Shown here in pieces: positions 7,890-62,033 of a stretch of DNA of 64,000 nucleotides. Source of the DNA: Nitrosopumilaceae archaeon. Its GTDB lineage: Archaea; Thermoproteota; Nitrososphaeria; Nitrososphaerales; Nitrosopumilaceae. The position numbers were made by a program, and so were the translations under genes. How positions within the stretch are numbered: position 1 is the stretch's first letter; every line of letters starts with the position of its first letter. The stretch is from the NCBI GenBank assembly GCA_965208905.1, contig OZ242365.1, positions 1,152,001 to 1,216,000 on the forward strand, written 5' to 3'. A model generated the notes under the pieces. The model was not told the DNA's origin. It saw only the letters and a program-made list of their open reading frames with translations, and searched no databases.

Positions 7890-9566
7890 CTACTCGCCCT
7901 GAATCCGCTCCAGCGCGGATGCAGGGATGGTGTAGAGCGCCTTCTGCAGGATGGCCCCCAAGACGGGCTGGTCGCTGCGATATCCGACGGACAAATCGTA
8001 CGAGTACCCGGTGGGCCCGGCGTTGTAGACTGTCATTCCCTCTCGCTCTGCGATGGCCTGGACCACCGACCAGACACCCGCGAAGGCATCGGCCTCGCCC
8101 TGCTGAAGCAAGGCCAACCCCTCTTCAAAACTGTCCACTGATACGTACCCGACGTCTGGGTGGTTCTCGTCCAGCCAGTCCTCTATGGCATAGTCGCGGA
8201 TGGTGATCACCTGTAGCCCGGGCTCGTCCATGGCCAACTGCATCTCCTGGGCGGTCACCAGGACAGACTCGATGGTGTAGTGGGGGGTGGTGAATCCCAT
8301 GTACTCGGACCTGGAGTCGGTTTCGACAGCCAGAAAGACCAGGTCGGCATCCCTCGCCCGAACGGACTCTAAGGCATGTGACCAGTCATCTATGGGAACC
8401 TGTTGAAAGTCGACACCGATGATCCTCTCAAACTCTGACATGTATCTGCCAGCGGCGCCGGCCAGCATGCCTGACTCGTCAAGATACTCTATCGGAAACC
8501 ATCCTGGGTCGTATGCCACCCGGATCACCGGGTGCTCTGCCAACCACGTCTTCTCTTCGGCGGTCAGCATCAGGCCCGGCGTACCCTCAAAGATCTCCAA
8601 CAGGGGCGGGGAGGCATCCAGCGCCTTCTGCAGGATGGCCCCCAGGACGGGCTGGTCGCCGCGGTACCCCACCGAGAGCGGGTACGAGTGGCCGGTGGGC
8701 CCGGCGTTGTAGACGGTCATCCCCTCCTGCTCGGCGGTGGCGCGGACCACCGGCCAAGTGGCGGCGAAGGCATCGGCCTCGCCCTGCTGTAGCAGGGCCA
8801 ACCCCTCTTCAAAACTGTCCACTGATACGTACCCGACGTCTGGGTGGTTCTCGTCCAGCCAGTCCTCTATCTCGTAGTTACGGATGGTGATCACCTGTAG
8901 CCCGGGCTCGTCCAGACTCATCTGTCTGTCTTCGGCGGCCACCAGCCTGGTCTCCAGGGTGTGGTGGGGGCTGGTGAACCCCATGTACTCGGACCGCTCG
9001 GGCGTGTGCGCCACCATGAACATGGCATCAGCATCCCTATCCCGGATGGCCTCCAAGGCACCCGTCCAGTCATCCGTCAGAACCGGCTGGAGGTCGGCCC
9101 CGGTGAGCTCCTCAAACTTGATTATATAGTGCAGAGTGACCCCGGCTATCTGGCCGTGCTCGTCGGCGTACTCTATCGGAAACCATCCCGGGTCGTGTGC
9201 CACCCGGATCACCGGGCGCTCTGCCAACCACGCCTGCTCTTCAGGGGTCAGCCCCAGGATTGCGGCGGGTGGCTGCATAGGACCTCTCTCCAGATCAATC
9301 CCGCGGGACATCAGAATATCGGCGGTACCAGGGAATAGACAGAGGGGCCGCGAGTCGTCCAGGTATAACTCCCTGGGCTCGTTGCACTGCACCCCGGAGG
9401 ACGGTACCCCCTGTTGGTGTGCCGGCGGTGCATGCGAGCCGTATCCGTCCGGGGATGCCGCCTGGGCAACCGCCACCACCATCATAGCTACCACTATCCC
9501 CAATACGGCGCACGCCATCACGTCGGATTGCCGGTTCCACGTACGGATGGGCGGCTTCATATGCAA
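7890..9566 (-). CDS. Secreted/anchored protein with two tandem family-3 (BvgS/HisK-type PBP2) solute-binding domains, GC-rich
   Basis: Signal/TM segment; two copies of LTxEEx(A/T)WLAExPVIRVAxDPGWFPIEY...ILQKAL at a 228-aa offset; markedly higher GC than the flanks. Confidence 0.85.
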   Translation of the reverse strand: MHMKPPIRTWNRQSDVMACAVLGIVVAMMVVAVAQAASPDGYGSHAPPAHQQGVPSSGVQCNEPRELYLDDSRPLCLFPGTADILMSRGIDLERGPMQPPAAILGLTPEEQAWLAERPVIRVAHDPGWFPIEYADEHGQIAGVTLHYIIKFEELTGADLQPVLTDDWTGALEAIRDRDADAMFMVAHTPERSEYMGFTSPHHTLETRLVAAEDRQMSLDEPGLQVITIRNYEIEDWLDENHPDVGYVSVDSFEEGLALLQQGEADAFAATWPVVRATAEQEGMTVYNAGPTGHSYPLSVGYRGDQPVLGAILQKALDASPPLLEIFEGTPGLMLTAEEKTWLAEHPVIRVAYDPGWFPIEYLDESGMLAGAAGRYMSEFERIIGVDFQQVPIDDWSHALESVRARDADLVFLAVETDSRSEYMGFTTPHYTIESVLVTAQEMQLAMDEPGLQVITIRDYAIEDWLDENHPDVGYVSVDSFEEGLALLQQGEADAFAGVWSVVQAIAEREGMTVYNAGPTGYSYDLSVGYRSDQPVLGAILQKALYTIPASALERIQGE

Positions 9567-9671: not shown

Positions 9672-9769
9672 GCAGAGGTATCGAAGCCCGGTCAACCGAG
9701 AAGGACTCAAGATCATCATAAGAAATCCTTTCCTTTAGGGGTTCGTGGGTTCAAATCCCACCTTCTGCA
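9672..9769 (+). tRNA. tRNA-Leu(CAA) with ~13-nt intron at the 37/38 position (about 9712-9724)
   Basis: Acceptor GCAGAGG/CTTCTGC-A73, anticodon stem AAGGA/TCCTT interrupted after CTCAAG, long V-arm, GGTTCAAATCCC; TATA about 28 nt upstream. Confidence 0.9.
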
Positions 9770-59846: not shown

Positions 59847-59962
59847 AAAAAAAATGGGAATTATAGTGATGGGTAGGATCATTTAATAATCCCAAACGGT
59901 GTAGTATAGCAAATTCAGATCCAAGGAGGTGAACGGGTAAACAGGATGCAAAAAATGCGGTT

Positions 59963-60112
59963 TCATATGCAAGTGTGCGATTTAATCATCAACCGAGGTG
60001 TCATGAATGTAAAAGGGAATGAAACCAATAGAATACACGATAGACACAGCCCGTGTATTTGAGGACATGCAGAATCAAACAGATGACATCCACACAGCCC
60101 TACAAGTTTCAT
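59963..60112 (-). CDS. Possible 49-aa Cys-rich hydrophobic cargo peptide
   Basis: MKLVGLCGCHLFDSACPQIHGLCLSCILLVSFPFTFMTPRLMIKSHTCI, preceded by AAGGAAGGTGA 6 nt before ATG; could be a by-product of RNA structure. Confidence 0.3.
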   Translation of the reverse strand: MKLVGLCGCHLFDSACPQIHGLCLSCILLVSFPFTFMTPRLMIKSHTCI

Positions 60113-60199
60113 GACACCTCACCTTCCTTTATATTGTATATAGTGGTTTTGATCATTTAGATACCGTAGCATTATATGTCGCGTATCGTATTGTACAAT

Positions 60200-60273
60200 G
60201 CCATGCGGGTTTAGTAGAAACTTTCACTCGTAAATTCATTAACGATATCCGTATCATGGCCTCTGCGGGTATC
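60200..60273 (+). ncRNA. Cargo pseudoknot RNA, copy 1
   Basis: TTATA at 60172; 5' GCCATG pairs with loop CATGGC (60255-60260); stems CGGGT/ACTCG and GATATCCGTA/TGCGGGTATC; G-U pairs favour the + strand. Confidence 0.7.
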
Positions 60274-60276
60274 ATA

Positions 60277-60558
60277 TCATGTCTTATAACGCATGTCCAA
60301 AACTCGCACTATACTATGTGTTATGTGCAGCATGGTTATCTTGCGTGGAGGCCGTGACTCAAATAAGGCCCTCTCAGACTCTAAATCTTTGACTTTCTGC
60401 AACAATTCCTTCAAGTATGACATGGTTATATCGTCTGCCCGTAATTGATGTGTGTCTTTTGCCTTGTTGTATGTTGTCCCTCTGAATGATGTTACTGTTT
60501 CTATGTTGTCCCTGGGATATTCTGGCAAATTCTCTAGTATGTCCCGTTCCAATGTCAT
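60277..60558 (-). CDS. 93-aa hypothetical cargo protein
   Basis: TTTATAC about 25 nt upstream of ATG (leaderless archaeal promoter geometry); amphipathic helix YLKELLQKVKDLESE. Confidence 0.6.
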   Translation of the reverse strand: MTLERDILENLPEYPRDNIETVTSFRGTTYNKAKDTHQLRADDITMSYLKELLQKVKDLESERALFESRPPRKITMLHITHSIVRVLDMRYKT

Positions 60559-60628
60559 AATGCGAGTTGTATGACAGTCTGTATAAACTCTATCAATGTT
60601 TATAATACAACCACAAGGGCAATGATAT

Positions 60629-60696
60629 GTCGCACGGGTTCATTAATGCTCGTTAAATCGTTGCTGCCGTCCATATTGCGACCTCTGTGGACGGCA
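60629..60696 (+). ncRNA. Cargo pseudoknot RNA, copy 2
   Basis: TTATA at 60600; 5' GTCGCA pairs with loop TGCGAC (60677-60682); stems CGGGT/GCTCG and TGCCGTCCATA/TGTGGACGGCA. Confidence 0.7.
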
Positions 60697-60813
60697 AAAT
60701 CTAAGATATAGCATTACATTTTTGTGATAAAGTTGGTTTACTATGTATTAACTTTGTACAACTAAATGCAAGTAAACATAGAGTTATAACCATAATCTAA
60801 GTATATACAAACA

Positions 60814-60897
60814 ATGGTATAACAGTTCCATGTTACTGCTTCAGATACCATGAGCGGTAACTGTCGCTGCCCCTGTAGATTGTGAGCTAGGGGCAGC
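60814..60897 (+). ncRNA. Two-hairpin structured leader of the cargo tRNA
   Basis: Stems GTTACTGCT/AGCGGTAAC (60832-60861) and GCTGCCCCT/AGGGGCAGC (60866-60897); ATGGTAT (60814-60820) is complementary to loop ATACCAT (60845-60851). Confidence 0.55.
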
Positions 60898-60907
60898 ATC
60901 ATCCTTT

Positions 60908-60990
60908 GTCGTGGTGGTCTAGTCTGGTAGGGCGGCGGTCTCAAAAATCGCTCATTCACAATGGCGCAGGTTCAAATCCTGTCCACGGCG
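60908..60990 (+). tRNA. IS-borne class II tRNA with anticodon CAA on a tRNA-Ser-like body (G73)
   Basis: GTCGTGG/CCACGGC-G acceptor; D-arm GTCTAGTCTGGTAGGGC; GCGGT-CTCAAAA-ATCGC; V-arm CATT-CAC-AATG; GCAGG-TTCAAAT-CCTGT. Confidence 0.88.
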
Positions 60991-61000
60991 CACTAAACAT

Positions 61001-61933
61001 CTAACTTATCAGTTGCTCATATGTCAACCGCTTGCCAATCATGCCCCTTGCCAAACTTATCATCATGTCTTCAGTGTCTAGATTTCGTATGTTTAAACGG
61101 CCAGCAAACTCATTGACATACCTGTGCAGGTGCTTTGCCGACACATGATGGAATGTACCGTAATAGCCACGCTTTAACAAAGCCCAAAAGGATTCTATGC
61201 CGTTAGTGTGCGCCATGCCGTTGACATATTGACTTACCGAATGATTAACCACTTCGTGATTTGGTAAACTCTTGTATGCTCTATGCTCATCCGTATAATG
61301 GGTACTGCCCGACTTGACATTGTCTTTAATAAATTTGCCAAGTCGAGCAGATGTGGTCTCATTTACGGGTTCGGCTCTTATATCACCTGTCTTTCTATCT
61401 TTGATACCTACAACTGCGGTTTTGTTTGCACCGCCTTGACTGTGGGGTTGTTTCTTTGTACTGTGTTTGTTCTTTTCCTTGCCACCGATATAGGTCTCAT
61501 CTATTTCGACTGGACCTTCCAGTTTGTCAATACCTGCCAATGTTTGCCATGATTCACGCAAACGCTGAACCATGAACCATGCTGAACTTTGGGATATGCC
61601 TAAGTCTCTGTGTAGTTTCATTGATGATATACCCTTGACATTAGTCATAAACTGGTATGTTGCGATTGCCCAATGCTGGTATGATATTTTGGATTGTTGC
61701 ATTACAGTGCCGACTTTGACTGAAAAATACGTTTTGCACTTACTACAATAGTATGGCATCTTTGGATGTTTACATTCTATGGTATCATCATGTTTGCAGT
61801 TGGGACATTTACGGCCATCTCTCCATATGTGGCTTTCAAACCACTTCATGGATGTATGATTGTCTGGAAACATCTTTAGTAAATCTATTAGTGTGATTCC
61901 TTCCCTGTGTGATTTGCCTGGTGCTTGTTGCAT
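61001..61933 (-). CDS. IS1595-family (ISXO2-like) DDE transposase
   Basis: CPNC...YYCSKC Zn finger, GISSMKLHRDLG HTH, EIDETYIGG, TDE, HTNGIESFW; TTTATAT about 25 nt before the ATG at 61933. Confidence 0.95.
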   Translation of the reverse strand: MQQAPGKSHREGITLIDLLKMFPDNHTSMKWFESHIWRDGRKCPNCKHDDTIECKHPKMPYYCSKCKTYFSVKVGTVMQQSKISYQHWAIATYQFMTNVKGISSMKLHRDLGISQSSAWFMVQRLRESWQTLAGIDKLEGPVEIDETYIGGKEKNKHSTKKQPHSQGGANKTAVVGIKDRKTGDIRAEPVNETTSARLGKFIKDNVKSGSTHYTDEHRAYKSLPNHEVVNHSVSQYVNGMAHTNGIESFWALLKRGYYGTFHHVSAKHLHRYVNEFAGRLNIRNLDTEDMMISLARGMIGKRLTYEQLIS

Positions 61934-62033
61934 GTAATACCTTAGATTCATAGGGCATATAAATCCTACCCATCACTATAATTCCCAAAAAAATCCTCAA
62001 CACCAACGATATAATTTGAACATAGATGCAATT

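Follow-up and report, generated by a model that had tools for sequence, protein, structure and literature searches.

An orphan class II tRNA gene with a CAA anticodon as passenger of a recently mobile IS1595-family insertion sequence in a Nitrosopumilaceae archaeon

The DNA considered here, called the window throughout, is a stretch of 64,000 nucleotides (positions 1,152,001 to 1,216,000 of contig OZ242365.1, assembly GCA_965208905.1) from a Nitrosopumilaceae archaeon, the genome of which is archaeal and consists of a single contig of 2.21 Mb. It contains an insertion sequence (IS) of the IS1595 family, 2131 bp long (59856-61986), and inside this IS, as a passenger, a transfer RNA (tRNA) gene that carries a leucine anticodon, CAA, on a body with several marks of a serine tRNA. 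An earlier note, made from the letters of the window, had drawn attention to this disagreement and had suggested that serine could be inserted at UUG codons. What lies at the locus is an intact and recently mobile orphan class II tRNA gene, a passenger of the IS; which amino acid it would receive, and whether it would decode, are questions of probability, which are weighed below as the evidence on each is given.

The locus and its insertion sequence

The CAA tRNA is called by ARAGORN at 60908-60991, as one of three tRNAs in the window, and is matched end to end at 60908-60990 by the Rfam family RF00005 (model positions 1-71), with 47.9 bits against a gathering score of 29 and an E value of 3.7e-07 for the whole window. 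Its acceptor stem, GTCGTGG / CCACGGC, includes a U2.G71 wobble, and the discriminator, at 60990, is G73; positions 8-26 read TGGTCTAGTCTGGTAGGGCG; the anticodon arm is GCGGT-CTCAAAA-ATCGC, with A37 and, at pair 30-40, G30.U40; the variable region, T-CATT-CAC-AATG-GC, is long, as in class II tRNAs; and the T arm is GCAGG-TTCAAAT-CCTGT. The four stems, the T loop and the GG of the D loop are all intact, and CCA is absent from the gene sequence. The complete cloverleaf that had been described earlier, with its anticodon at 60942-60944, is correct in every listed detail. The layout of this tRNA and of its relatives is the ordinary one, with a 7-bp acceptor stem and a 5-bp T stem (7/5), and is not the 8/4 or 9/3 layout by which allo-tRNAs are recognized.

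The element around it has what characterizes the IS1595 family: the transposase domain, terminal inverted repeats, duplications of the target site of 8 bp, a length typical of the family, and signs of movement (Table 1). A stretch of 2144 bp around the tRNA is present twice in the genome, at 99.86% identity; the two IS copies differ by one base inside the element, and the tRNA is identical in both. The second copy is flanked by its own 8-bp duplication, AAAATTAT, and, degenerate matches aside, the terminal repeat occurs nowhere in the genome except where these copies end. The flanks abut with no element between them both in the nearest species of the genus (G005, with flanks 95–97% identical) and in a further genome of the genus (G008), which makes the insertion recent. 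Contigs are about twice as deep over the element as over the flanks, and the junctions of both copies are seen (Logan, one sample). The IS has transposed at least two times in this genome.

Table 1. Features of the insertion sequence and its surroundings (positions in the window)
Feature	Position	Strand	Remarks
Target-site duplication, left copy, AAAAAAAT	59848-59855		Same 8 bp after the right end
Terminal inverted repeat, left, 24 bp	59856-59879	+	100% complementary to 61963-61986
Passenger open reading frame (ORF), 93 aa	60277-60558	-	No Pfam family; weak PHROG match of unknown function
Predicted structured 5′ leader, two hairpins	60832-60901	+	Fold of 60830-60995, z -2.1; prediction only
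Orphan class II tRNA, anticodon CAA (60942-60944), G73, A37, G30.U40	60908-60990	+	ARAGORN, Rfam
IS1595-family DDE transposase, 316 aa	61001-61951	-	PF12762, E 2.2e-40, 138.6 bits
Terminal inverted repeat, right, 24 bp	61963-61986	-	One mismatch in the second copy (61969)
Target-site duplication, right copy, AAAAAAAT	61987-61994		Empty site in G005 and G008

These two copies bear directly on the possibility that CAA stems from an error in sequencing or assembly, or from a one-off point mutation of a tRNA-Ser(CGA). The A at 60943, which had been singled out for checking, is the same in the second genomic copy, so that both known copies of the element carry CAA, and the Logan contigs match 59854-61841 with 0 differences, these contigs coming from four runs of one sample that is probably the source itself and is thus not independent. 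It is true that CAA is one change away from CGA, as the earlier note had pointed out, that the anticodon arms of the window tRNA and of the host tRNA-Ser(CGA) are the same at 15 of 17 positions, and that the first three acceptor pairs, including U2.G71, are common to both. However, the two tRNAs are only 64% identical overall, a normal tRNA-Ser(CGA) is still present in the host, and the nearest relatives of the window tRNA are orphan tRNAs with TAA or CAA anticodons, the closest being a TAA orphan of another genome of the genus, G001, with 76% identity. In a tree built without the anticodon and discriminator columns, the resolution of which is weak given its 80 columns, the window tRNA and 15 other orphans form one group (Shimodaira–Hasegawa-like approximate likelihood ratio test, SH-aLRT, 89), apart from the Ser and Leu tRNAs. 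The derivation from tRNA-Ser(CGA) by a single substitution was not upheld, and an error or a point mutant has a practically negligible probability.

As regards the rest of the element, the transposase gene converges with the tRNA and has its stop codon 10 nt past the 3′ end of the latter, and the zinc ribbon PF12760 at the N-terminus of the transposase reaches 20.1 bits, under its cut-off of 25.4. Upstream of the tRNA, within the IS, there are about 350 nt of non-coding DNA, and no second tRNA-like element was found within the IS. The members of the IS1595 family reportedly share the transposase, the inverted repeats and the 8-bp duplication, with cargo other than the transposase in some subgroups. 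The window IS resembles them in all of these respects, extra cargo included, and is set apart by the nature of its cargo, a tRNA. Relatives of the transposase number 188 in a collection of species-representative genomes; ARAGORN was run on 60 of the 80 loci kept, and at none of these 60 was there a tRNA at the 3′ end of the transposase, so that a recurrent cargo of the family was not found among them, some tRNA or transfer-messenger RNA lying within 2.5 kb of the transposase in five. Shorter relatives of the transposase gene in the same genome (75–79% DNA identity) are without cargo. A BLAST of the passenger part against 60 relatives, G001, G008 and G032 among them, yielded no further copies of the element; all that it gave were weak matches between the tRNA body and orphan tRNAs of the first two, and a partial match to a tRNA-Trp in G032. 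Likewise, an exact-pattern scan for the tRNA found none in the JGI metagenomes or IMG/VR, and a scan of the JGI metagenomes seeded with the 93-aa protein gave no match.

The other passenger, the 93-aa ORF, belongs to a tiny orphan family (3 clusters in 5.8 billion proteins). Its kin are a protein 89% identical to it, encoded on a contig of 658 nt, and a paralog of 97 aa in another part of the genome (L008 1462-1755, minus strand), and the pattern of conservation between the ORF and this paralog is of the coding type. The 97-aa paralog adjoins a repeat protein with DITDP-type repeats, and a similar repeat protein stands beside the CAA orphan tRNA of G001.

Among the loci kept (L071-L150), the closest relatives of the transposase are three archaeal records, titles such as Cenarchaeum sp. 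and Nitrosopumilaceae among them, and the next ones (44–57% identity) come from bacterial metagenome-assembled genomes (MAGs), for instance of Binatia, Acidobacteriota, Dehalococcoidia and Poriferihabitaceae. The names of these bacterial MAGs suggest sponge microbiomes, which hints at an exchange of the IS family between domains in one habitat. In a MAG of Acidobacteriota, a 95-nt tRNA with a TAT anticodon (L096 4288-4382) lies some 860 nt downstream of a related IS1595-family transposase, and is possibly a bacterial allo-tRNA(UAU) beside the same IS family.

Identity elements and the orphan tRNAs of the genus

The host has a complete canonical serine set (CGA, TGA, GGA, GCT), all with G73, and a complete canonical leucine set (CAG, TAG, GAG, CAA, TAA), all with A73. 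In the 12 canonical Leu tRNAs taken from four genomes of the genus, A73, G37 and a 2-nt insertion in the D loop (..GGYCAAAGGCG) are invariant, as are, in the variable arm, a stem of 3 bp, the A-G with which its loop ends and the TT at its 3′ base. For their part, the 12 canonical Ser tRNAs all have G73, G30-C40 and no D-loop insertion, and their variable arm is a 4-bp stem followed by two unpaired bases (T-GTCA-GCAA-TGAC-GC). The window tRNA is Ser-like at the discriminator, in the D loop and in the variable arm (a 4-bp stem with two unpaired 3′ bases), and the Leu marks are missing: A73, G37 (it has A37), the D-loop insertion, the A-G end of the loop (CAC) and the TT (GC). Both the serine type that had been assigned to its G73, D region and variable arm, which matches the 12 canonical Ser tRNAs, and the contrast that had been drawn with the host's own tRNA-Leu(CAA) are borne out, the latter gene (9672-9769) having an intron, G37, A73 and a longer D loop. 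The anticodon, CAA, is outside the serine set (NGA or GCU).

In the review PMC9976931, the change of A73 to G73 is reported to turn leucine identity into serine identity in several systems; the leucyl-tRNA synthetase (LeuRS) of Haloferax volcanii is said there to require A73 together with A47c, G47d and U47h, and G73 is given as a strong determinant for the archaeal seryl-tRNA synthetase (SerRS), with the G30-C40 pair as a weaker one. The invariant features of the Leu tRNAs of the genus are of just the kind reported for the Haloferax LeuRS, the only archaeal LeuRS studied, and the determinants of that enzyme (A73, A47c/G47d, U47h) are all absent from the window tRNA.

The two identities were also compared by means of home-made isotype covariance models (not those of tRNAscan-SE), built from 12 canonical Ser and 10 canonical Leu tRNAs of the genus. 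Six held-out Ser tRNAs score 87.2–103.9 bits on the Ser model and 45.3–60.4 on the Leu model, and six held-out Leu tRNAs 56.8–68.3 and 95.5–111.8, respectively, so that these controls, each taken from two other genera, stand cleanly apart on both models. The window tRNA, with 62.1 bits on the Ser model and 41.3 on the Leu model, leans towards serine by 20.8 bits, and its Leu score is below that of genuine Ser tRNAs. A preference for serine is thus there in relative terms, but the Ser score itself is far from the 87.2–103.9 bits of true Ser tRNAs; judged by its sequence, the window tRNA is a third kind of class II tRNA, and a poor Ser tRNA in absolute score. As to the enzymes, exactly one SerRS and one LeuRS above the cut-off are present in all 10 genomes of the genus (in the host, at genome positions 208945-210174 and 908352-911138, respectively), so there would be no dedicated synthetase for it: a second SerRS or LeuRS, considered as a candidate, was not found in any of the 10.

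The window tRNA is not alone. The genus was scanned with the Rfam model and with our own class II model, the matches listed reaching down to 58.5 bits, and every class II match of G001 and G008 was fetched, as were all the suspects of G002, G006 and G009. Beside the canonical nine, there are at least 27 orphan class II loci in 6 of the 10 genomes, which among the matches listed are distributed as follows: 10 in G001, eight in G009, four in G006, two in G008, one in G002, and two in the host genome (G000), these last being both IS copies. G003, G004, G005 and G007 have eight class II tRNAs each among the matches listed, and low-scoring orphans may exist in them. The anticodons of the 25 listed loci outside the host are TAA (7), TAT (3), GAT (3), CAA (2), GAA (2), ACC (2), and CGG, GAG, AAG and CCT (1 each), with an 8-nt anticodon loop in the remaining two; none of the 27 listed loci has a Ser anticodon, the types being those of Leu, Ile, Phe, Gly, Pro and Arg instead. 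G73 is found in 25 of the 27 (23 of the 25 outside the host) and A73 in two (L051, L056), and several orphans score about equally on the Ser and Leu models. Two orphans, in G001 and G008 (one CAA, one TAA), have G73 and their own TATA-like boxes, and no IS is near them. Outside the genus, three complete genomes of three other genera of the family gave eight or nine class II matches each, which is the canonical number; 15 of these matches were fetched and checked (six of G012, seven of G010, two of G019).

In a structural alignment of 24 orphans and the window tRNA, into which one class I tRNA-Phe had strayed as well, an alignment that was fitted to the model and so favours structure, 95.5% of the cells are paired, and changes on both sides occur in 19 of the 23 pairs, anticodon stem included, with none of the shuffled and slid-register controls coming close. 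This pattern indicates that the orphans are maintained tRNAs, not decaying copies; because the changes are compensatory, they would have been kept as tRNAs while the anticodon varied, which fits a charging enzyme that ignores the anticodon. The window tRNA belongs to a structurally conserved, apparently genus-specific orphan clade with a patchy distribution in this genus of sponge-associated archaea of the ammonia-oxidiser type.

The anticodons of the orphans bear on another explanation, that the window tRNA is an extra, mobile tRNA-Leu(CAA) charged with leucine by a LeuRS that tolerates G73 and a foreign variable arm, in which case the family would be mostly harmless. The anticodon itself is a leucine one, as are those of 11 of the 25 listed orphans outside the host (TAA 7, CAA 2, GAG 1, AAG 1), and eight more have Ile or Phe anticodons, for which leucine would be a mild change; L051 and L056 do have A73, some orphans are undecided between the models, TTG is used normally in the genes of the IS, and in nematodes, class II tRNAs that bear Gly or Ile anticodons receive leucine (PMC3333845). 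Nevertheless, the window tRNA has G73 in place of the A73 of the 12 canonical Leu tRNAs, A37 in place of their invariant G37, none of the variable-arm bases that the only archaeal LeuRS studied needs, and 41.3 bits on a Leu model where even genuine Ser tRNAs obtain 45.3–60.4. Leucine charging thus seems to us quite unlikely.

Still less likely, in our estimation, is that the orphan tRNAs have their own identity, whether for another amino acid, for a tRNA-dependent modification pathway or for some non-ribosomal use. The separation of the 16 orphans from both Ser and Leu tRNAs in the tree would agree with this, as would a Ser-model score of about 60 bits, far under that of canonical tRNAs, and the 8-nt anticodon loops of L053 and L054; on the other side are the ordinary 7/5 cloverleaf and the fact that orphan-rich genomes have no extra SerRS or LeuRS paralog, in a survey of these two synthetase families.

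Some further observations concern the orphan loci. The two tRNAs with 8-nt anticodon loops (L053 3001-3082 and L054 3001-3082, both of G009), for which ARAGORN gives the 4-base anticodon ‘tgat’, have about 400 nt of flank in common at 84% identity, but their neighbours differ: an IS6-type transposase in one case, an IS110-type transposase together with the LeuRS gene in the other. An element of 70–75 nt, 96% identical between G009 and G002 (L049 3575-3649, L060 1091-1165, L051 3292-3360), lies at distances between a few dozen and a few hundred nt from orphan tRNAs; it has repeated CCCAACTCAC...TTGACA-like motifs and no Rfam match. Finally, genomes of the same genus have 54–66% G+C (regions of L004 and L045-L060) vs about 42% in the window, with canonical tRNAs that are nearly identical, a compositional spread that is unusually wide for one genus.

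Charging, expression and decoding

The reading that we prefer, if tentatively and with a probability of roughly 0.4, is that the window tRNA is a weakly expressed UUG reader of the SerRS type. The single SerRS of the cell would charge it, this enzyme being the likeliest one because of G73, the Ser-type variable stem with its two unpaired bases and the absence of any published archaeal LeuRS determinant, and the serylated CAA tRNA would then put serine at UUG. Its expression would be weak or conditional, as is to be expected since UUG is common and the gene lacks a normal tRNA promoter, and would probably take place by way of a longer transcript, with a structured leader of some 70 nt that RNase P would remove. 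The outcome would be a low level of Leu-to-Ser ambiguity rather than a reassignment.

Several findings weigh against this serine reading. As to identity, the window tRNA has G30.U40 where the 12 canonical Ser tRNAs have G30-C40; on the Ser model it is outscored by all the held-out canonical Ser tRNAs and falls within the range of real Leu tRNAs (56.8–68.3 bits); it is not nested among the Ser tRNAs in the tree; and the identity rules themselves are those of Haloferax, Methanosarcina, human and E. coli, extrapolated to this archaeal lineage. As to expression, a run of at least six A/T at -48 to -19 precedes 43 of the 46 other tRNA genes of the genome (vs 26% of random windows), and the longest such run before the IS-borne tRNA is of three, with no promoter box of the tRNA type; among the data sets listed for the element there is none of RNA, a result that is neutral as to expression. 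As to codon use, by a rough proxy (ORFs of 300 aa or more) 20% of the Leu codons, about 16 per 1000 codons, are TTG, and with so common a codon an efficient insertion of serine should be costly; canonical tRNA-Leu(CAA) and tRNA-Leu(UAA), both present in the genome, would compete. The points of expression and of codon use tell against strong mistranslation. The genes of the IS are no exception, as TTG accounts for 5 of the 19 Leu codons of the transposase, one of them at a column with Leu in 70 of 76 homologues, and for 6 of the 11 of the 93-aa ORF, at Leu or hydrophobic columns. A recoding of TTG as serine within the IS genes was considered and rejected, since all five and six of these codons fall at Leu or hydrophobic columns and never at mainly Ser ones. 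Thus, of the insertion of serine at UUG that had been proposed for this tRNA, the part that stands is the body, with its Ser-type identity marks and its leaning on the models, and the part that is weakened is the decoding, given the missing A/T box and the columns at which TTG occurs.

The same upstream region also speaks for a role of the tRNA outside decoding, as a tRNA-shaped element that serves the IS or as a hitch-hiker or neutral passenger. The nearest TATATA box lies about 100 nt upstream of the tRNA, at about 60802-60807, and implies a leader, in which two hairpins are predicted. In such a role the tRNA could be (i) a signal for RNase P and RNase Z that frees the upstream leader, much as the earlier note had suggested as an alternative, or that frees a downstream RNA, antisense to the mRNA of the convergent transposase; or (ii) a sequence that supplies the opposite strand with a T5 terminator, some 50 nt after the transposase stop. 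The lack of a tRNA-type promoter box would agree with this, as would the convergent stop codon so close to the tRNA, the absence of a T run on the plus strand after it, the complement of the anticodon loop (ATTTTT), and the transposase-family ORFs near 6 of the 12 orphan loci examined in G006 and G009, a count that is without background control and comes from 20 ORFs picked by the G+C content of third codon positions and by position. On the other hand, the tRNA is intact in its stems, its T loop and its D-loop GG, the compensatory change over 23 pairs, anticodon stem included, fits a working tRNA better than a cleavage tag, the relatives in G001 and G008 stand alone with their own boxes and without an IS, and the leader is without comparative support, its two copies being identical. 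We regard a role of this kind as somewhat less probable than the serine reading.

Other features of the window and the genome deserve a brief mention. Directly upstream of the canonical tRNA-Leu(CAA), a 558-aa ORF (7890-9566, minus strand) has a bacterial domain of solute-binding-protein family 3 (PF00497) and lies in an island of 58% G+C within a window of about 42%; it may be a horizontal acquisition. Outside the window, at G000:C1:1664528-1664679, there are two adjacent odd tRNA-like genes, called by ARAGORN as Ser-ACT and as Pro-CGG with a 3-nt ‘intron’, both without the usual upstream A/T box, which may be foreign or degenerate. Lastly, a tRNA-Val(CAC) of 92 nt (G000:C1:1830088-1830179, and L039) has a variable region some 17 nt longer than usual, a trait conserved in two genomes and probably due to a non-canonical intron.

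Relation to known systems and significance

Natural tRNAs in which body and anticodon disagree are rare, and they are raw material for change in the genetic code. The known cases are the yeast tRNA-Ser(CAG), the bacterial allo-tRNAs and the nematode nev-tRNAs. In the yeasts of the CUG clade, a tRNA with a Ser-type body and a Leu anticodon puts serine at a Leu codon, and this is a fixed chromosomal reassignment, accompanied by the loss of the competing tRNA-Leu and by adaptation of the proteome. The window tRNA shares with it the Ser-type body and the Leu anticodon; unlike the yeasts, however, its host keeps tRNA-Leu(CAA), tRNA-Leu(UAA) and a normal use of TTG, and the gene is mobile and absent from the nearest species.

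The allo-tRNAs would be the closest in their working. As described by Mukai et al. (2017, PMC5389517), they are class II tRNAs of bacteria in which Ser identity elements are combined with anticodons for Leu (UUA/UUG included), Ile (UAU), Arg and other amino acids; they are patchily distributed, near transposon-related genes and toxin-antitoxin loci, and some of them put serine at Leu codons, while others appear to be inactive in translation. The Ser marks, the non-Ser anticodons and the patchy distribution are common to both; in contrast, allo-tRNAs are bacterial and are defined by 8/4 or 9/3 forms, whereas the window tRNA and its relatives are archaeal and 7/5, and where allo-tRNAs are found near transposon-related genes, the window tRNA is demonstrably within the inverted repeats of an active IS. 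The nev-tRNAs, in turn, are presented in PMC3333845 as lineage-specific class II tRNAs of nematodes with anticodons of neither Ser nor Leu but of Gly or Ile, weakly expressed, reading rarer codons and Leu-charged. They resemble the family described here in being a lineage-specific class II expansion with anticodons that are not those of Ser, and differ from it in being eukaryotic and Leu-charged; the archaeal orphans mostly have G73 and not the Leu-type discriminator. In the open-access literature, supplements apart, we found no archaeal tRNA with this kind of mismatch between body and anticodon, and no report of such a tRNA as cargo of a defined, recently active IS, or indeed of any IS that carries a tRNA.

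A wider hypothesis would extend the serine reading to the whole family, in the sense that the genus could keep a pool of class II tRNAs that are mobile and charged by SerRS, that would have drifted in their anticodons to those of Leu, Ile, Phe, Gly, Pro and Arg, and that insertion sequences could pick up and spread. We consider this unlikely as it stands, on present sequence evidence.

If this wider hypothesis is true, the pool would be an archaeal counterpart of the allo-tRNAs with an ordinary cloverleaf, and the IS would carry a device that makes UUG locally ambiguous, Leu or Ser, whenever the IS is transcribed. If the window tRNA is serylated, the locus would offer a direct test of the tolerance of a cell for mobile Leu-to-Ser ambiguity at a common codon, and would show whether selfish elements exploit mistranslation. 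Even if it is inactive in decoding, the existence in one genus of at least 27 structurally maintained orphan loci, some of them near transposases, needs explaining.

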